From positions 1-5,636 of IMG/VR virus record IMGVR_UViG_3300045988_033297: a stretch of DNA of 5,636 bases; one strand, written 5' to 3'. The position numbers and the translations under genes are program-made. This document shows, piece by piece, positions 1 through 5,636 of this stretch. Below the pieces are notes generated by a model. The model was not told the DNA's origin and did not search any database. It saw only the letters and a program-made list of their open reading frames with translations. Positions within the stretch are counted from its first letter, which is position 1; the number at the start of each line of letters is the position of its first letter. Origin of the DNA: a virus.

Positions 1-99
1 GTTTTTTTTTTTTTGGTAAAATTGAACAAAAAGGAGGCGATATTGTGGACAACCGCTTTTAATCCGAACAGAAAAGAAATCATAAGAGTATACGTAGGA
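1..99. repeat. Terminal direct repeat, copy 1 (assembly overlap of a circular genome)
   Basis: Read by eye, 1-99 (G, T13, GGTAAAATTGAAC...GTATACGTAGGA) is identical to 5538-5636. The offset of 5,537 nt is the unit genome length. Confidence 0.9.
14..22 (+). promoter_or_regulatory. Possible extended -10 promoter element (TGGTAAAAT) for the 43-240 ORF
   Basis: TGGTAAAAT fits TGnTAnAAT and lies directly after the T13 tract, about 9 nt before the AAGGAGG RBS at 31-37. No convincing -35 is present in circular coordinates (TTGTGT at 5534-5539 leaves only a 14-nt spacer). Confidence 0.25.
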
Positions 100-240
100 G
101 TCGTAGAGATATGGGCGATCGAAGAACTGGCACAGGAGTACTTTGTAACGCAGGGACGAGTTATCCGGGACGCTATCAAAGTTGCTCTGAGGCACAAAGA
201 AGAGCTATACGAGCTGTTAAAGATGGATACAGAGATCTGA
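43..240 (+). CDS. Small ribbon-helix-helix-like DNA-binding protein (65 aa, TTG start)
   Basis: The ORF-track frame 13-240 has an in-frame TTG at 43, placed 5 nt after a strong AAGGAGG (31-37). The upstream TTG codons at 13 and 22 lie in or just after the terminator T-run and have no RBS. The sequence KEIIRVYVGVVEIWAIEELAQEYFVTQGRVIRDAIKVALRH fits a beta-strand/helix/turn/helix RHH pattern (ELA...G..IR.AI...L). Confidence 0.5.
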   Translation: MWTTAFNPNRKEIIRVYVGVVEIWAIEELAQEYFVTQGRVIRDAIKVALRHKEELYELLKMDTEI

Positions 241-347
241 AAAAAGCCAGAACACTCGGAGAAGCTGAAGCGATCATCCGTGAGATCTACGAAGCCAAAG
301 CAATCATCAACGAGGAGGAGCTAAAATGGCTAAAAGAGTCAAAATGA
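111..347 (+). CDS. Hypothetical protein (78 aa), possibly overprinted on the 43-240 ORF
   Basis: ATG at 111 follows AGGAG (96-100) with a 10-nt spacer. The C-terminal half (KKARTLGEAEAIIREIYEAKAIINEEELKWLKESK, nt 240-344) looks like a helical protein and covers 241-325, which no other frame explains. The N-terminal half (MGDRRTGTGVLCNAGTSYPGRYQSC) looks poor. Long chance alternative-frame ORFs do occur elsewhere in this genome. Confidence 0.25.
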   Translation: MGDRRTGTGVLCNAGTSYPGRYQSCSEAQRRAIRAVKDGYRDLKKARTLGEAEAIIREIYEAKAIINEEELKWLKESK

Positions 348-445
348 AGCCAAGGAAAGACCAGAAAGTCTTTTCCAACACAGCAAAGAAGACCAAATCC
401 ATCAACATCACGCCAAAAATCATGCGTGGTGGTACGAGACTGTAA
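326..445 (+). CDS. Small highly basic DNA-binding/packaging protein (gokushovirus ORF8-type, phiX174 J analogue), 39 aa
   Basis: Absent from the ORF track because it is too short. ATG at 326 lies 5 nt after GAGGAGGAG (312-320). The product is MAKRVKMKPRKDQKVFSNTAKKTKSINITPKIMRGGTRL, with 13 K/R and 1 acidic residue. The C-terminal MRGGxRL matches the conserved end of these proteins as I recall it. Stop TAA is at 443-445. Confidence 0.75.
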   Translation: MAKRVKMKPRKDQKVFSNTAKKTKSINITPKIMRGGTRL

Positions 446-458
446 AGGAGAAAAAACT

Positions 459-737
459 ATGATCCTGGAATACTATGCCATCAAAGACACCAAAGTCGCC
501 TTTATGAATCCGTTCATGCAGCACAACAAGGCAGAAGCCATCCGATCTTTCCGCAGCGTCCTGGCAGATGAACGCAGCGAGGCAGCCAAAAACCCGGCAG
601 ATTATGAACTCTGGTACGTTGGACAGTGGGACGACGCAACGGGCATCATGATGGGCGGTCAGCCGCAGTTTATCGAAAACGGAGTGGAGGGTTTGAAAAA
701 TGCCGAAAACCGAAGTGCACATCTGGAGTCGATTTGA
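459..737 (+). CDS. VP5: VP5-like nonstructural protein of Gokushovirinae (92 aa)
   Basis: This is ORF-track frame 426-737, but the ATG at 459 has AAGGAG (445-450) 8 nt upstream. The pattern Y.IKD.K...F..PF...N..EAIRSF......E.S....NP.DYELW.VG.WDD.TG matches the VP5 family pattern as I recall it. Confidence 0.8.
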   Translation: MILEYYAIKDTKVAFMNPFMQHNKAEAIRSFRSVLADERSEAAKNPADYELWYVGQWDDATGIMMGGQPQFIENGVEGLKNAENRSAHLESI

Positions 738-1206
738 TCGACCGGACACGATCCCAGCGCCAGAGGGCACCGGCACAGAGCCGGAGTACATGGAAGCGAT
801 CGACGAAAACGGTCACAAAACACTGAAAAAAACCGGAGAAACCGACACTTACGCCATGATCCAGGCGAGTCTGGAAGAAACCAAGATCGAGAACATCATC
901 AAACGAGCCACGCTGGGCGATCCGACCGCACTCACGCAGACAATGGGCGCATATATGGACACCACAGACATGCCAACAAGCCTGGCCGAGATGCAGAACG
1001 CCATTATCACGATCGAAAACGAATTCAACAAGCTGCCTCTCGAAACTCGTCTCAAGTTTAACCAAAGTGCAGAAAAATATATCTCTATGTACGGCTCTGA
1101 AGAATGGGCCAAAATCATGGGATATGAAAAAATTCAGCAAAATGCACAAACAAAAGCCTCAGCTGAGGCAGAGGAGATTGTGCAGAAAGGAGAAAATAAA
1201 GAATGA
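700..1206 (+). CDS. VP3: VP3 internal scaffolding protein (168 aa)
   Basis: GGAGG (686-690) lies 9 nt before the ATG. It sits immediately upstream of VP1. The sequence ...IENIIKR...GAYMDTTDMPTSLAEMQNAIITIENEFNKLPLETRLKFNQSAEKYISM... resembles the gokushovirus scaffold family. It overlaps VP5 by 38 nt and VP1 by ATGA. Confidence 0.85.
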   Translation: MPKTEVHIWSRFDRPDTIPAPEGTGTEPEYMEAIDENGHKTLKKTGETDTYAMIQASLEETKIENIIKRATLGDPTALTQTMGAYMDTTDMPTSLAEMQNAIITIENEFNKLPLETRLKFNQSAEKYISMYGSEEWAKIMGYEKIQQNAQTKASAEAEEIVQKGENKE

Positions 1207-2924
1207 ACCGAAATTCTGAAAGCCATTTCGCACAAATTCCACATGCAGACATCAGCCGATCGAAGTTCTACCGAAACTCAGACCATAAGACAACGTTCAA
1301 CGCCGGGCAGCTCATCCCGATCTACTGCGACGAAGTTCTGCCGGGAGACACACATCAGATGGACATGAGCGCACTGATCCGGATGAGCACACCGATCTTT
1401 CCGACCATGGACAATCTTTACTGCGATTTTTACTTTTTCTTCGTCCCAAACCGTCTCACCTGGATTCACTGGAAAGAATTCATGGGCGAAAACACACAGA
1501 GCTACTGGACACAACCGACTGAATACCAAATACCAGTCATTGACACAACAAAAAACAAAGAATCAAAAACAAATGGAATCGCAAACGGAAGCACCCTCGA
1601 CTACTTCGGAATACCAACCAAAACCAATGGGCTAAAAATCAATGCACTTCCACAAAGAGCATACCAACTGATCTGGAACGAATGGTTCAGAGATCAAAAC
1701 ATACAGCAGCCATGCGAAATCCCATTAGATGAAACAACAGTACATCAAGATGGAACAAGTACAGAAAAACATAACTCTGGACAACCATACAAATACTTCA
1801 TAACAGAATACGTCACATTAGCAAAAAGCGGATATGCATGCTTACCTGTCAACAAATATCACGACTACTTCACCAGCTGCCTGCCGCAACCGCAGAAAGG
1901 CGCAGCCGTTCTGCTGCCGATGAGCGGAAATGCAATCATAGGTTATGGAAACGCCGGAACCGGAAAGCTATACAACAACGAAGACTTTAATACACTCGGC
2001 TGGACCAGCACGGCAACCGGATGGAAACACGACATAAACGGAATGTCAGCAAACACAACAGCAACAAAAAACGACGGAAATATCGCATCAATCGGAACCT
2101 ATCCGACAGGAAGCGGAACAACAGAAGCAGTCAGCCTAATCGCAGACCTGGGCAAAGTCACAGGCGCAACGATCAATCAGCTCCGTCAGGCATTCCAGAT
2201 TCAGAAACTTCTGGAACGGGATGCACGAGGCGGCACAAGATACACCGAAATTCTGAAAGCACACTTCAACGTGACTTCTCCGGACTCTCGCCAGCAGCGA
2301 CCAGAGTATCTTGGTGGCTACAGAATGCCGATCAACATCACGCAGGTGGTACAGAACTCTGAAACCACAGCAACGAGTCCGCAGGGCAACACCGCAGCAT
2401 TTTCAGTAAGTGGCATGAACAAGTCAATGTTCACAAAAAGCTTTACTGAGCACGGATATATCATCGGTCTGGCAGCCGTCAGAACCGAGCATACTTACCA
2501 ACAGGGCATTGAACGCATGTGGAGCCGAAAAGGCAGATATGACTTCTACTGGCCGGAACTTGCGAATATCGGAGAACAAGCAGTGCTCAACAAAGAAATT
2601 TATGCACAGGGCACAGCGGCAGACGAAGAAGCGTTCGGCTACCAGGAGGCCTGGGCAGACTATCGGTACAAGCCGAGCCGAGTGTCAGGCGATATGCGGT
2701 CAAACTACAACCAGACGCTGGACAGCTGGCACTATGCCGACAACTACACAGAGCAACCAAAACTGTCGAGCACCTGGATGATGGAGACCATGAACAACAT
2801 CGACCGGACTCTTGCAGTTCAAAGCAGCGTAGAAGACCAGTTCATTGCAGACTTCTATTTCAAAGCACAGACCACAAGGCCGATGCCTGTCTACAGTGTA
2901 CCGGGCCTTATCGACCATCACTAA
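1203..2924 (+). CDS. VP1: VP1 major capsid protein (Microviridae F-protein family), 573 aa
   Basis: Hallmark N-terminus SHFAQIPHADISRSKF...HKTTFNAGQLIPIYCDEVLPGDT...MSTPIFPTMDNLYCDFYFFFVPNRL. Internal TINQLRQAFQIQKLLERDARGGTRYTEILKAHFNV. C-terminal RPMPVYSVPGLIDHH. Confidence 0.97.
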   Translation: MNRNSESHFAQIPHADISRSKFYRNSDHKTTFNAGQLIPIYCDEVLPGDTHQMDMSALIRMSTPIFPTMDNLYCDFYFFFVPNRLTWIHWKEFMGENTQSYWTQPTEYQIPVIDTTKNKESKTNGIANGSTLDYFGIPTKTNGLKINALPQRAYQLIWNEWFRDQNIQQPCEIPLDETTVHQDGTSTEKHNSGQPYKYFITEYVTLAKSGYACLPVNKYHDYFTSCLPQPQKGAAVLLPMSGNAIIGYGNAGTGKLYNNEDFNTLGWTSTATGWKHDINGMSANTTATKNDGNIASIGTYPTGSGTTEAVSLIADLGKVTGATINQLRQAFQIQKLLERDARGGTRYTEILKAHFNVTSPDSRQQRPEYLGGYRMPINITQVVQNSETTATSPQGNTAAFSVSGMNKSMFTKSFTEHGYIIGLAAVRTEHTYQQGIERMWSRKGRYDFYWPELANIGEQAVLNKEIYAQGTAADEEAFGYQEAWADYRYKPSRVSGDMRSNYNQTLDSWHYADNYTEQPKLSSTWMMETMNNIDRTLAVQSSVEDQFIADFYFKAQTTRPMPVYSVPGLIDHH

Positions 2925-2935
2925 TCGCCACAGAG

Positions 2936-2967
2936 GCGGCTCAGAGGCTCTCTGAGCCGCTTTTCTT
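2936..2967 (+). terminator. Rho-independent terminator after VP1
   Basis: GCGGCTCAGAG (2936-2946) pairs perfectly with CTCTGAGCCGC (2950-2960): an 11-bp GC-rich stem with a 3-nt loop, followed by TTTTCTT (2961-2967). Confidence 0.8.
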
Positions 2968-2984
2968 ATCAGGAGGAAAACTAT

Positions 2985-3821
2985 ATGGGACTCTTAGGAA
3001 CAATCGCCGGAATGGTGCTCCCAAACGTCATAAACTGGGGATTAGGACAAATCTTCGGAGGAGGAGCAAACAGCACAACCCAAGGAGCAAGCCATAGCCA
3101 GGGCGGCAGCACAACACAGAGCCAGAGCGGCACAAACGACCAATTCAATGCACAGCAAGCACAGCTCAACCGAGACTATCAGACCATGAGCCAGGCGATC
3201 CAGGGCAATTACAACATGAAAAGCATGATCATGAATATGGGCTACAACACCATGGGAGCCATCATGCAAGGCGTGTACAACGGAATCAGCCAAAAAGCAG
3301 CCATGAACTACAACTCAGCTGAAGCAGCAGCAAACAGAGCTTGGCAAACCGAAATGAGCAACACAGCCTATCAGAGAGCTGTGCAAGACTTAAAAGCCGC
3401 AGGACTTAACCCGATCTTAGCAGCACTTCACGGAGGAGCCGTCACAGGATCAGGAGCATACGGCAGCTCAGGAGCCAGCACGATCGGAGCACCAAGCACA
3501 AGCGCAGCAAGCATCTCAGCCATGCCAGGCACAGCAACACCAAGCAGCCAATGGAGCTGGTCAAAGGGTTCCAGCTGGAACGAAAGCACGGCCTATAACA
3601 TGGGCGAATCCGTAATGCGATACTATGCCGATCCAAACAACAGCGCAAAAAACCTCAAAGAAACAGGAGACAAAGTTGTAAAAGCCGGCAAAGAAGCAGG
3701 CGAGCAAATCAAAGACGCATACAAATACTCAAGCCCGGCAAACAAAATGAATCGCAACTCAGCAAACATCAACGGCAAAGGATATACAAGCCCAGGCAAC
3801 GGAGCAGGCAGAACAAAGTAA
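2985..3821 (+). CDS. VP2: VP2 DNA pilot / minor capsid protein (278 aa)
   Basis: AGGAGG (2971-2976) lies 8 nt before the ATG. It has a hydrophobic N-terminus (LLGTIAGMVLPNVINWGLGQIFGG), S/T/G/Q/N-rich low-complexity tracts, and the pilot-protein signature AWQTEMSNTAYQRAVQDLKAAGLNPILAA (nt 3339-3425). Confidence 0.9.
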   Translation: MGLLGTIAGMVLPNVINWGLGQIFGGGANSTTQGASHSQGGSTTQSQSGTNDQFNAQQAQLNRDYQTMSQAIQGNYNMKSMIMNMGYNTMGAIMQGVYNGISQKAAMNYNSAEAAANRAWQTEMSNTAYQRAVQDLKAAGLNPILAALHGGAVTGSGAYGSSGASTIGAPSTSAASISAMPGTATPSSQWSWSKGSSWNESTAYNMGESVMRYYADPNNSAKNLKETGDKVVKAGKEAGEQIKDAYKYSSPANKMNRNSANINGKGYTSPGNGAGRTK

Positions 3822-3850
3822 TTGACATACATCAAATAAAAGTGTATAAT
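3822..3850 (+). promoter_or_regulatory. Consensus sigma70/sigmaA promoter P1 (TTGACA-17 nt-TATAAT) for the RHH-rep unit
   Basis: TTGACA at 3822-3827, an exact 17-nt spacer, TATAAT at 3845-3850, with TG immediately 5' of the -10. It starts the nucleotide after the VP2 stop and is nearly identical to the block at 5286-5315. Confidence 0.8.
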
Positions 3851-3871
3851 AACGCATAGGAGGTGTATGTT

Positions 3872-4039
3872 ATGAAATGCACAGTAAGAAGAATCAATGT
3901 GAATCTCACAGAGAAAGAAAACGAAGCTCTCAAACGAACGGCAAAAGCCATGGGTGAAAAAGAAAGCGAGATCGTACGCAAAGCAATCATGAGTTTTACC
4001 AGCAATGGTAAAGATTTACAGGGAAATAATGGTCAGTAA
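3872..4039 (+). CDS. CopG/Arc/MetJ-type ribbon-helix-helix transcriptional regulator (55 aa)
   Basis: Absent from the ORF track. AGGAGG (3858-3863) lies 8 nt before the ATG at 3872; stop TAA is at 4037-4039. The product is MKCTVRRINVNLTEKENEALKRTAKAMGEKESEIVRKAIMSFTSNGKDLQGNNGQ. RINVNL (strand), EKENEALKRTAKAMG (helix A) and EKESEIVRKAIMSF (helix B) form a textbook RHH pattern. Confidence 0.75.
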   Translation: MKCTVRRINVNLTEKENEALKRTAKAMGEKESEIVRKAIMSFTSNGKDLQGNNGQ

Positions 4040-4065
4040 ATAGGAACCGTTCGCGGCATCGCTGT

Positions 4066-4107
4066 CACCTAGCCCCCTTACATCAAGTAGGGCTCGGGGG
4101 CTAGGTG
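4066..4107 (+). other. Perfect 12-bp GC-rich stem-loop between the RHH gene and rep (candidate origin or regulatory hairpin)
   Basis: CACCTAGCCCCC (4066-4077) is the exact reverse complement of GGGGGCTAGGTG (4096-4107). The 18-nt loop TTACATCAAGTAGGGCTC contains TACATCAA (4079-4086). There is no T-tract afterwards, so it is not a canonical terminator. The rep RBS begins 4 nt downstream. Confidence 0.7.
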
Positions 4108-4120
4108 CCAGGGGGAGGAG

Positions 4121-5161
4121 GTGAAGACCGATTTGGGCTGTAAATTTCCAATTGTGCAAGACACAAAAACAGGCAGATTTTTGAAAGAGTACGAGGGAAA
4201 ACTTTACTACAAGTGGAACGACTATGACGGTAAATCGACAAACGCAATCATCACAGATGAACGCTACCGTCTCATACCGTGCGGTAGGTGTACCGAGTGC
4301 CGATTAGCGTACTCGAGAGAGTGGGCAAACCGCTGTGTACTCGAATCACTACTCTACAAGTCGAACTGGTTCATAACACTGACTTACAACCCTGAGCAGA
4401 TTCCAACACTAAGGCTCGATACAGGTGAACTGTACAGAGGAGGTGTGCAAGAAGTACAAAATGGTAAAGTGTTAGTGTCTAACACACTGTTCCATGACGA
4501 TGTGCAAAAATTCCTCAAAAAACTGAGATTCCACCTCGCAAAGGCTGGAGAACCAGAAATCCGATACTACATGTGCGGAGAGTATGGCAGCACAACACAA
4601 CGGCCACACTACCACATGATCGTCTACAATCTGAATGTGCCTGATCTTGAGTTCTACAAGCTTAACGAACTACATCAACCTTACTTTCAAAGCGAATGGC
4701 TTGAAAAAATGTGGGGACATGGGTTTGTAACACTCGGAGAAGTAAACTGGAATACCTGCGCATACGTGGCAAGGTACATCATGAAAAAAGTGAAAGGAGA
4801 TAAAGCAGAAGAATTTTATAAAAGCATCGGAAAAACACCAGAATATACAAGAATGAGTTTAAAACCAGGAATAGGAGCAAAATACTATGAACTGAATAAA
4901 GAACAAATCTATAAATTTGATCAAATCATCATACCAGGAAAACAAGCAAAAAAAGTACAGCCATCAAAATATTTCGACAAGCTGTATGATATAGACAATC
5001 CAGAAAGGATGCAGGAAATCAAAAAAGCACGTGAAAAAAATGCACGCCTTGCTCAGCAGCTCAAATTAAGCAAAACCACAAAGGAACTGTGGGAACAGCT
5101 TAAAATAGAGCACGAAGCCAAACAAGACGCATACAAAAAACTTATAAGACCGCTAGAATAG
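4121..5161 (+). CDS. VP4: VP4 replication initiator, HUH rolling-circle endonuclease (346 aa from GTG 4121; alternative TTG start at 4133)
   Basis: RCR motif 1 is FITLTY (aa 84-89). HUH motif 2 is RPHYHMIVY (nt 4601-4627). Motif 3 is AYVARYIMKK with Tyr215 and Tyr219 (nt 4763-4777). A Cys cluster CGRCTEC lies at aa 54-60. The G-rich RBS GGGGGAGGAGG (4111-4121) abuts the GTG. A TTG at 4133 would give MGCKFP..., resembling the typical M.C..P N-terminus of VP4. Confidence 0.93.
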   Translation: MKTDLGCKFPIVQDTKTGRFLKEYEGKLYYKWNDYDGKSTNAIITDERYRLIPCGRCTECRLAYSREWANRCVLESLLYKSNWFITLTYNPEQIPTLRLDTGELYRGGVQEVQNGKVLVSNTLFHDDVQKFLKKLRFHLAKAGEPEIRYYMCGEYGSTTQRPHYHMIVYNLNVPDLEFYKLNELHQPYFQSEWLEKMWGHGFVTLGEVNWNTCAYVARYIMKKVKGDKAEEFYKSIGKTPEYTRMSLKPGIGAKYYELNKEQIYKFDQIIIPGKQAKKVQPSKYFDKLYDIDNPERMQEIKKAREKNARLAQQLKLSKTTKELWEQLKIEHEAKQDAYKKLIRPLE

Positions 5162-5168
5162 CTGAATA

Positions 5169-5212
5169 AGGGCGCAACACGGAATCTGACCTCCACGTTG
5201 CGCCCTGCTTTT
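5169..5212 (+). terminator. Probable terminator after rep (10-bp stem, large loop, short T-tract)
   Basis: AGGGCGCAAC (5169-5178) pairs with GTTGCGCCCT (5197-5206). The loop is 18 nt, followed by GCTTTT (5207-5212). The large loop and short T-run lower confidence. Confidence 0.45.
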
Positions 5213-5214
5213 CA

Positions 5215-5231
5215 TCGGCATCCAATGCCGA
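5215..5231 (+). other. Small perfect hairpin TCGGCAT-CCA-ATGCCGA
   Basis: 7-bp stem (5215-5221 with 5225-5231) and a 3-nt loop. It is nested inside an alternative pairing GCCCTGC (5202-5208) with GCAGGGC (5234-5240). Confidence 0.6.
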
Positions 5232-5246
5232 GCGCAGGGCCTACAG

Positions 5247-5263
5247 ATAAAATAGCATAAAAT
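5247..5263 (+). repeat. Tandem ATAAAAT-AGC-ATAAAAT (10-nt phase), UP-element-like A/T block upstream of P2
   Basis: ATAAAAT occurs at 5247-5253 and 5257-5263, one helical turn apart, 23-39 nt upstream of the -35 box at 5286. Confidence 0.4.
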
Positions 5264-5285
5264 GATGTATATTTCAAGAAAACAG

Positions 5286-5314
5286 TTGACATACATCAAA
5301 TCTAGATGTATAAT
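5286..5314 (+). promoter_or_regulatory. Consensus sigma70/sigmaA promoter P2 (TTGACA-17 nt-TATAAT) for the acidic small ORF
   Basis: TTGACA at 5286-5291, a 17-nt spacer, TATAAT at 5309-5314. The perfect 7-nt inverted repeat ATACATC (5291-5297) / GATGTAT (5305-5311) bridges the -35 and -10 boxes. Confidence 0.8.
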
Positions 5315-5340
5315 AGAATCAGAAAGAAAGGAGAATAACA

Positions 5341-5502
5341 ATGAAAAGTTACTATGAAGAACATGTAAAAGATTGTGCAGCAGCTCTTTACGACGGCGGA
5401 TGGAGAAGCACAGACAGAAACGAAATACAAAAAGAATACAACATGGACGATGAGTGGACAGATGCAATCTGCGAAGAACTAAAAAAATACGAACAACAAT
5501 AA
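5341..5502 (+). CDS. Acidic small protein of unknown function (53 aa)
   Basis: Absent from the ORF track. AAGGAG (5328-5333) lies 7 nt before the ATG at 5341; stop TAA is at 5500-5502. The product is MKSYYEEHVKDCAAALYDGGWRSTDRNEIQKEYNMDDEWTDAICEELKKYEQQ, with 14 D/E versus 7 K/R. It is flanked by its own consensus promoter and a strong terminator. Confidence 0.65.
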   Translation: MKSYYEEHVKDCAAALYDGGWRSTDRNEIQKEYNMDDEWTDAICEELKKYEQQ

Positions 5503-5511
5503 GAATACTAC

Positions 5512-5551
5512 AAAACACAGGACAAAAAAAGTCTTGTGTTTTTTTTTTTTT
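5512..5551 (+). terminator. Strong rho-independent terminator (stem, A7 loop, T13 tail)
   Basis: CACAGGAC (5516-5523) pairs with GTCTTGTG (5531-5538): 8 bp with one G-U. The loop is A7 (5524-5530). The flanking A-run (5512-5515) can extend the stem. T13 lies at 5539-5551 and is duplicated at 2-14. Confidence 0.85.
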
Positions 5552-5636
5552 GGTAAAATTGAACAAAAAGGAGGCGATATTGTGGACAACCGCTTTTAAT
5601 CCGAACAGAAAAGAAATCATAAGAGTATACGTAGGA
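5538..5636. repeat. Terminal direct repeat, copy 2 (same sequence as 1-99)
   Basis: Identical to 1-99 by eye. It contains a duplicate of the RBS and the first 19 codons of the 43-240 ORF (5580-5636), which is an artefact of linearisation and not a second gene. Confidence 0.9.

Follow-up and report, generated by a model that had tools for sequence, protein, structure and literature searches.

A candidate operator shared by the two consensus promoters of a gokushovirus-like microvirus

Why does a small phage genome carry the same 30-nt promoter block twice, in front of two different transcription units? The question is raised by the IMG/VR virus record IMGVR_UViG_3300045988_033297, positions 1 to 5,636 (the whole stretch of 5,636 nt is called the window below). 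Its first 99 nt recur at 5538-5636, and this terminal redundancy implies a circular genome of 5,537 nt, that of a gokushovirus-like microvirus in which the plus strand is the coding strand of every gene. Identical or nearly identical genomes originate from human-gut metagenomes. A whole-genome megablast against GenBank phages returned only short matches in VP1 and VP3, indicating that no close relative with annotation is present among them. The first block, P1 (3822-3851), precedes a gene for a small ribbon-helix-helix (RHH)-like protein and the replication initiator gene rep; the second, P2 (5286-5315), precedes an open reading frame (ORF) for a small acidic protein. An earlier analysis confined to the letters of the window (the sequence-only reading) proposed that the two blocks share an operator and that the two units form a small regulon. 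Related genomes support this proposal, with a corrected extent of the putative operator: its units are conserved, are phased across the family and travel together with the RHH gene. The genes, promoter parts and terminators of the window that are given with coordinates here lie on the plus strand.

P1 reads TTGACATACATCAAATAAAAGTGTATAATA and P2 reads TTGACATACATCAAATCTAGATGTATAATA. The 26/30 identity first reported for them is exact: the first 16 and the last 9 nt match, and the differences fall on four of the five central bases. When the window is compared with itself by a repeat finder, the similar stretch grows to 40 nt, of which 80% are identical (3812-3851 and 5276-5315). Both promoters agree with TTGACA-17-TATAAT at 12 of 12 positions, with the -35 hexamers at 3822-3827 (TTGACA) and 5286-5291 and the -10 hexamers TATAAT at 3845-3850 and 5309-5314. 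They are the sole such sites in the window; the runners-up reach 9 of 12, and on the minus strand the promoter scan shows only weak sites. The 25-base pattern occurs at two sites only, even with up to three mismatches allowed, and not once in 200 dinucleotide shuffles. Outside the hexamers 14 of 18 positions are identical between P1 and P2 (P ~1e-5 at the base composition of the window). P1 abuts the stop codon of VP2 and lies 21 nt 5' of the RHH start codon, whereas P2 is located 3' of the Rep terminator and 26 nt 5' of the acidic ORF. Judged by these features, the microvirus has two consensus promoters of the sigma-70/sigma-A type, P1 and P2, and both would be expected to fire. In the interval from the RHH gene to Rep the promoter scan reveals no further consensus promoter. 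The order P1-RHH-hairpin-Rep is kept in all relatives, and the two genes are presumably co-transcribed, with Rep as the second gene of the P1 operon.

Within the shared blocks we distinguish two 6-bp units. In P1, unit 1 is TACATC (3828-3833), the reverse complement of GATGTA; a variable 7-nt linker follows (3834-3840), and then unit 2, AGTGTA (3841-3846), which overlaps the -10 hexamer. In P2, unit 1 (TACATC, 5292-5297) and unit 2 (GATGTA, 5305-5310) form, across their linker, the perfect inverted repeat ATACATC-N7-GATGTAT. The arrangement unit-N7-unit is found exactly twice in the window, at 3828 and 5292, against 0.018 occurrences expected. Two further sequences of this kind lie nearby. An extra GATGTAT at 5264-5270, 16 nt upstream of the P2 -35 hexamer, is present in the related contig L013 and not in L074. 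A GGTGTA unit at 3862-3867, in the ribosome-binding region of the RHH gene and out of the 13-bp phase described below, is invariant in all five P1 variants; its role is ambiguous, since GGTG also lies within the extended Shine-Dalgarno sequence AGGAGGTG. A canonical extended -10 or a -16 element was considered as the source of the conserved TG and rejected, because this TG lies at -14/-13, outside the TGn register.

Clusters of the RHH protein, traced to their encoding contigs (L013 and L065-L078), provided relatives of the window, with five distinct P1 and two intact P2 sequences. Searches of viral contigs with RHH and Rep gave L013 only, and the exact 16-mer TTGACATACATCAAAT has 42 loci in viral contigs, all of them chance matches apart from L013. 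The seven promoters (P1 of the window, L013, L070, L074 and L077; P2 of the window and L074) share TTGAMA-TACATC...TG-TAKAAT, while heavy substitution is seen in the 40 nt upstream (the end of VP2), in 6-7 central bases of the spacer and in the 7 nt after the -10 hexamer. The inverted repeat ATACATC-N7-GATGTAT is perfect in P2 of the window, in both promoters of L074 and in P1 of L077, and in the remaining three P1 it is broken by one or two mismatches. The second RHH-like ORF, located in the window at 43-240, is absent from L074, yet both promoters of L074 have perfect inverted repeats. The sequence-only reading had placed the conservation in a single spacer-proximal element, ACATACATCAAAT. 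The TACATC portion holds up, and AA is kept in most copies, but the element as a whole does not, as the identity of its AAAT is lost in relatives; moreover, what is conserved is paired with RRTGTA at the -10 hexamer, which serves as a second unit. Relatives that keep the hexamers alone, named in advance as the case that would speak against an operator, did not turn up: TACATC and TG are retained in all seven promoters. Concerted evolution of the variable spacer between P1 and P2 gave no signal in a comparison by hand; the two promoters of one genome are no closer to each other than to their counterparts in the other genome.

A second, distant lineage (L043-L054, L079-L089, L156, L157, L183 and L185) came to light through homology to the acidic ORF and to the RHH protein. 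In most of its members a consensus promoter stands just 5' of an RHH gene located ahead of Rep, and in many another such promoter lies 3' of Rep. In both lineages the consensus promoters stand 5' of a gene with a ribosome-binding site, P1 leading into the RHH gene and P2 into an ORF that we term its cargo. We aligned 42 distinct promoter sequences, from the related microviruses and from a plasmid-like element introduced below, on the first base of the -35 hexamer. RTGTA appears in them at offsets 7, 20 and 33 only, plus 41 in the window lineage, and inverted units lie at offset 6 (window lineage) and at ~43-46. The 6-bp units, RRTGTA or the inverse YACACY, start at 6, 19, 32 and 45, which amounts to a period of 13 bp. 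P2 of L050 can serve as an example: TTGACA AGTGTA tgtttta GGTGTA taataaa GGTGTA agaagag CACACC. In the distant lineage a genome typically has 4-5 of its 4-9 plus-strand GTGTA at the two promoters, that is, in ~3% of the genome. The non-hexamer bases shared by P1 and P2 of the window coincide with units 1 and 2 of the family, the only two in-phase units that the window retains. Such a 13-bp phased array of units appears to be new, and as the target of an RHH protein it would represent an operator of novel design.

The candidate repressor of P1 and P2 is the RHH-like protein of 55 aa encoded at 3872-4039. It has weak Pfam matches to RHH_1 and DUF6290 and a PHROG match to 'transcriptional repressor'; an RHH_1 match with E no higher than 0.1 is seen in 5 of 14 relatives (best 6.4e-6). 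Ten residues are invariant in 51 RHH sequences (M1, R7, N9, N11, L12, T13, L20, S32, R36 and A38), and three of them on the beta strand (R7, N9 and N11) correspond in the alignment to R4, T6 and T8, the DNA-reading residues of CopG. Among solved structures, a 14-member profile matches ORF56 of pRN1 and CopG best, and these matches are marginal (E 0.16-0.4). The AlphaFold2 model (predicted local distance difference test score, pLDDT, 80) is extended at residues 1-13 and helical at 14-27 and 31-46, a strand-helix-helix order, and all 50 Foldseek matches listed from the PDB are RHH proteins, including ParG, TacA, CopG (among the best, at a root-mean-square deviation of 1.2 Å), Arc, AmrZ, NikA and Reg576. 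The family comprises 325 clusters; none of them has an annotation, and nearly all come from contigs of 5.3-5.9 kb.

The tie between the putative operator and the RHH protein is supported by genetic linkage. The RHH gene is found 3' of P1 in every relative examined, and the association extends to another kind of replicon. An identical 67-aa RHH protein (P0115) is encoded by the microviruses L183 and L185 and by L184, an element with Rep_1 and an integrase; L184 and L185 have 290 nt in common at 94.5% identity, spanning exactly the promoter and the RHH gene. L184 also displays a remnant resembling the end of VP2 5' of this promoter. Together with L158, L159 and L182 it belongs to a set of ~5-kb elements that combine a Rep_1 rolling-circle initiator, a phage-type integrase and the microvirus promoter-RHH module. 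In three of the four (L158, L159 and L182) the promoter, TTGACA..GGTGTATAATATAGGTGTA-N7-TACACC (also written TTGACA..aaaagaGGTGTATAATataGGTGTAagaatcgTACACC), is followed by a homologue of AcrIC5 (61 aa; Pfam 1.2e-24, 86.6 bits) and then by the RHH gene, which by gene order is the layout of an anti-CRISPR/anti-CRISPR-associated (acr-aca) operon. The sharing of promoter and RHH gene with these four elements shows that promoter, units and RHH gene move as one module. AcrIC5 homologues found in viral contigs occur in phages of ~17 kb and ~58 kb; none is microviral, and none has an adjacent RHH gene or a GGTGTA promoter.

P2 displays a different pattern, with a promoter that stays and a cargo that changes. 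The best nucleotide match between the window and L044, a member of the distant lineage, is the acidic ORF (5337-5502, 88%), and the best other segment, in VP1, reaches 66%. The similarity begins 4 nt before the ATG and stops at the stop codon. P2 of this ORF is of the TACATC type in the window and of the AGTGTA/GGTGTA type in L044, each matching the type of the P1 array of its own lineage; these lineage-specific P2 arrays are the nearest approach to covariation that the data permit. On this comparison, P2 is part of the resident lineage and not of the cargo, and the acidic ORF was exchanged as an ORF-only unit. In other genomes the same P2 precedes a member of the acidic AAALYDGGWR family, to which the 53-aa protein of the window (5341-5502) belongs, or unrelated small ORFs (L083, L087, L088/L089 and L157). 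P2, the ORF and the terminator stem are missing en bloc from L070-73 and L077-78. The sequence-only reading had also raised a recombination event, and the data lend it support: the acidic ORF has been swapped between lineages, and P2 with its ORF is present or absent as a cassette. L013 carries a 140-nt deletion from just after the P2 TACATCAAAT into the acidic ORF (L013 38-55; window 5302-5442), with loss of both the -10 hexamer and the start codon; L013 may be a naturally defective variant, or the deletion may reflect recombination at the motif.

The acidic family itself is large (1,172 clusters), with members both in microviruses and in tailed phages of 30-72 kb. In the latter (L056-L064) the acidic ORF is self-contained, with a promoter and terminator of its own that are unrelated to P2. 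The protein is modelled as three helices (pLDDT 94.6), and it has no informative structural match in the PDB or BFVD and no match in Pfam, PHROG or PADLOC. Homologues of the cargo in genomes come from metagenome-assembled genomes of Clostridia and other Firmicutes, a loose pointer to the host.

We consider it probable that the RHH protein represses both P1, with the RHH-Rep operon, and P2, with its cargo. Once the incoming strand has been made double-stranded, P1 and P2 would fire strongly; the RHH protein would build up and bind the units across the -35 and -10 hexamers of both promoters; and the bound protein would keep RNA polymerase off P1 and P2, shutting down RHH-Rep and the cargo gene. 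The RHH-Rep operon would in this way be autoregulated and P2 co-repressed. We infer the binding to the units, the repression by binding, its timing and the firing of both promoters from the sequences compared here. A further step, which we put forward tentatively and hold to be possible but less likely than repression as such, is a miniature circuit in the style of acr-aca operons, with one RHH repressor set over Rep and over a swappable P2 slot for anti-defence or host-takeover proteins. No known anti-defence function was found among the P2 cargo, and the window has no known anti-CRISPR gene.

The textbook model for gene expression in microviruses is phiX174, whose promoters are constitutive and whose terminators are leaky, and to our knowledge that model includes no phage-encoded repressor. 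If the proposed repression takes place, a large clade of human-gut gokushovirus-like phages autoregulates Rep in the manner of rolling-circle plasmids, one operator also controls an exchangeable accessory gene, and the regulatory module is common to microviruses and to plasmid-like elements with an anti-CRISPR homologue. The circuit would give handles on early/late and copy-number control, on possible carrier states of single-stranded DNA phages, and on where to seek anti-defence genes. Should the tentative extension hold as well, these would be the smallest phages known with regulated counter-defence cargo, and the phiX174-based view of microviruses as lacking dedicated transcriptional regulators would be overturned. 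Circuits of the kind proposed, with an RHH protein that represses its own rep or anti-defence operon, are known; the proposed occurrence in microviruses and the resident cargo slot are new. For Microviridae, our searches of the literature brought up neither an RHH regulator nor an operator nor a regulated cargo slot.

Several observations weigh against repression by the RHH protein at phased units. The Pfam RHH_1 score of the window protein is 15.8 bits, below the curated cut-off of 20.5, and most genomes also carry a second RHH-like gene. The filter that selected the 42 promoters demanded TG at -14/-13 and thereby partly forced unit 2, while units 1, 3 and 4 were unforced. The window lineage has two in-phase units only, with unit 1 inverted relative to P2 of the other lineage. 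The promoter counts overstate independence, as the sequences are phylogenetically related; the independent contexts are only two microvirus lineages and one plasmid-like element. A spacing of 13 bp is also unusual for arrays of RHH dimers, the known values being ~11 bp for Arc, 8 for MetJ and 7 for omega.

The small number of independent lineages likewise favours an explanation without any operator, in which P2 was copied from the P1 core and the shared bases were kept by descent and by selection for promoter strength, through spacer context and the TG by the -10 hexamer. Strong selection on promoter function is certain, since both promoters are perfect consensus; the AAAT of the shared run is not kept in relatives; and P2 with its ORF acts as an insertion/deletion cassette. 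Against this account stands the invariance of TACATC in seven of seven promoters amid heavily substituted spacer neighbours and flanks. The TG is one base off the canonical extended -10 register, the units recur in 13-bp phase 3' of the -10 hexamer, where RNA polymerase has no sequence requirement, and a third promoter of the same genomes, P3, is free of units. We judge descent and promoter strength to be an unlikely explanation of the shared bases.

A host protein could also be the reader of the inverted repeat. A winged-helix PadR or a small XRE repressor would bind ATACATC-N7-GATGTAT, with the host gating the early promoters or the phage titrating the factor. A metagenome scan favours this possibility, and the presence of the palindrome in bacterial promoters beside PadR and XRE genes counts against the RHH protein. 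The scan, with TTGAMATACATC-N8-RTGTAKAAT, yields 61 loci (46 distinct 29-mers), none of them microviral; 8 of 10 downstream regulator-like ORFs, picked by eye and submitted to a Pfam scan, are of the PadR family; and three contigs from the human gut (L109, L097 and L151) have an XRE-type gene of ~80 aa that diverges from the promoter. In the scan the palindrome outreaches the required bases, with a G completing a C:G pair in 30 of the 46 sequences and at least two extra pairs in 23 of them, and many of the non-microviral loci display the extended palindrome ATACATCA-N5-TGATGTAT. The operator of Clostridioides difficile cdPadR1, TACT-N11-12-AGTA with an AT-rich spacer overlapping -35/-10 (PMC5050560), has the same geometry as TACA-N11-TGTA of P1 and P2. 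By contrast, the palindrome is confined to the window lineage, other lineages having direct RRTGTA units at the same two positions, and the units accompany the RHH gene to a different replicon. Neither a PadR nor an XRE protein is encoded by the phage (none of the 10 window ORFs tested is PadR-like), and no cognate host regulator can be named. A host repressor appears improbable, more so than shared descent.

The scan provides observations in their own right. Bacterial promoters of the form TTGACATACATCA-N5-TGATGTATAAT (L095-L155) adjoin PadR genes in soil and other metagenomes. In human-gut contigs an XRE gene with the motif QQQYSRFENGVFELNYQQI is divergent from the palindromic promoter (L109 1980-2280, L097 4907-5180 and L151 6452-6725). 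With a palindrome fused to consensus -35 and -10 hexamers, these promoters seem to represent a family of operators that has not been characterised.

The last alternative concerns a GC-rich hairpin at 4062-4111 (loop 4078-4095), which separates the RHH gene from rep and is found in all related genomes. Among 14 sequences, 12 of its 18 stem pairs have compensatory changes, and conservation is seen in the core of the loop, ACATCAAG, and in the left flank, TTGTGTCA. With no T tract 3' of it, the hairpin is more likely a replication origin, with the Rep nick site, than a terminator. The 8-mer TACATCAA has five copies in the window, all on the plus strand (1741, 3828, 4079, 4671 and 5292; 0.27 expected), which sit in VP1, P1, the hairpin loop, rep and P2; the loop and P1 copies are found in every genome of the window lineage. 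A family-wide link between origin motif and promoter was considered and rejected, because the loop motif of the other lineage does not co-vary with its promoter spacer. That the 8-mer is a Rep- or origin-related motif by which Rep, or some other factor that binds the origin, might attach to the promoters and exert feedback is very improbable: its over-representation, its place in the loop of a conserved hairpin upstream of rep, the compensatory stem changes and the conserved ACATCAAG would fit, but the other lineage keeps ACATCAAG in the loop and does not carry it in its promoters, P2 of L074 reads TACATCGC, two of the five copies are in coding sequence (one of them not conserved), and the 8-mer was picked after the data were seen.

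The surroundings of the two promoters complete the picture of the genome. Upstream of P1 lie genes for a basic 39-aa protein (326-445), ORF5 (459-737), the VP3 scaffold (700-1206), the VP1 capsid protein (1203-2924) and the VP2 pilot protein (2985-3821), and a terminator-like hairpin is seen 3' of the VP1 gene at 2931-2960. Rep (VP4), the replication initiator, is encoded at 4121-5161 (Pfam REP_ORF2-G2P 3e-21, PHROG 942 1e-108). A GC-rich hairpin with a short T tract after it, at 5169-5215, is a probable terminator dividing the P1 operon from P2. A small hairpin, GGCATCCAATGCC, follows this terminator at 5218-5231, and its stem co-varies in relatives (GGCGCACCGCGCC in L074). The P2 unit is closed by an intrinsic terminator at 5512-5551, with a 12-bp stem and a run of 13 T. 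Straight after the tail of 13 T, at the head of the structural operon, lies the candidate promoter P3, with the extended -10 sequence TGGTAAAAT (5551-5559, also 14-22). P3 is kept in both lineages as TGGTAAAAT, TGTTAAAAT or TGATAGAAT after the T run of the preceding terminator, and is likely a third promoter whose upstream T run doubles as a terminator tail. It falls in a different class from P1 and P2, since it has neither a -35 hexamer nor RRTGTA units.

The region 43-347 contains a small ORF (43-240) overlapped by another (111-347). The former is RHH-like; it begins with TTG behind AGGAGG, and its substitutions relative to L070 are conservative. Gene callers choose 111-347, where conservation is apparent only in the C-terminal half, past 240. 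The region is wholly missing from L074, and its counterparts in the other lineage match RHH_3 and RHH_1 weakly. It may represent a second regulator or an overprinted gene pair.

Among known systems, the closest parallel in operon structure is copG-repB of plasmid pMV158, in which CopG represses the promoter Pcr; the operon ORF56-ORF904 of the archaeal plasmid pRN1 follows a similar logic. In pMV158, as in the microvirus, a small RHH gene lies directly 5' of a rolling-circle/HUH initiator gene behind one promoter, and the putative microvirus operator, which overlaps the -10 and abuts the -35 hexamer, would likewise lie over the core promoter. The microvirus replicon is, however, of a lytic type and not a plasmid, its RHH protein is only marginally similar to CopG, and it has a second promoter, P2, with the same units. 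An antisense RNA as a second control element was not seen, and no search aimed at one was made beyond the promoter scan. The units also differ, being 6 bp long with a 13-bp period, whereas CopG has a 13-bp pseudo-symmetric element at the -35 hexamer. Omega of pSM19035 accepts units in direct or inverted orientation. Arc and Mnt of P22, omega and Reg576 place RHH dimers on repeated short units at or across core early or establishment promoters, and the microvirus differs from all of these in its RRTGTA unit and 13-bp period, with homology shown for the fold only. Reg576, of the pLS20-family plasmids, governs genes for establishment on DNA arriving in the cell in single-stranded form (PMC8708921). 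PadR operators such as that of cdPadR1 resemble P1 and P2 in having 4-bp cores 11 nt apart and an AT-rich spacer between -35 and -10, and the differences are that the phage has no PadR gene and that direct repeats occupy the same positions in other lineages. Finally, Aca14, an RHH protein, represses its own and a neighbouring operon via an inverted repeat overlapping the -10 hexamer (bioRxiv 10.64898/2026.07.27.740549). The microvirus repeats similarly overlap the -10 hexamers at the operon of the RHH gene itself (P1) and at a neighbouring accessory operon (P2), and the proposed circuit would follow the logic of Aca regulators, with a small repressor that damps a very strong early promoter. 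The microvirus RHH gene differs from aca genes in coming first in its operon and being followed by Rep instead of an anti-CRISPR gene; on L158, L159 and L182, by contrast, homologues of the window RHH protein occupy the aca position itself, behind the AcrIC5 homologue and under the same type of operator-promoter.

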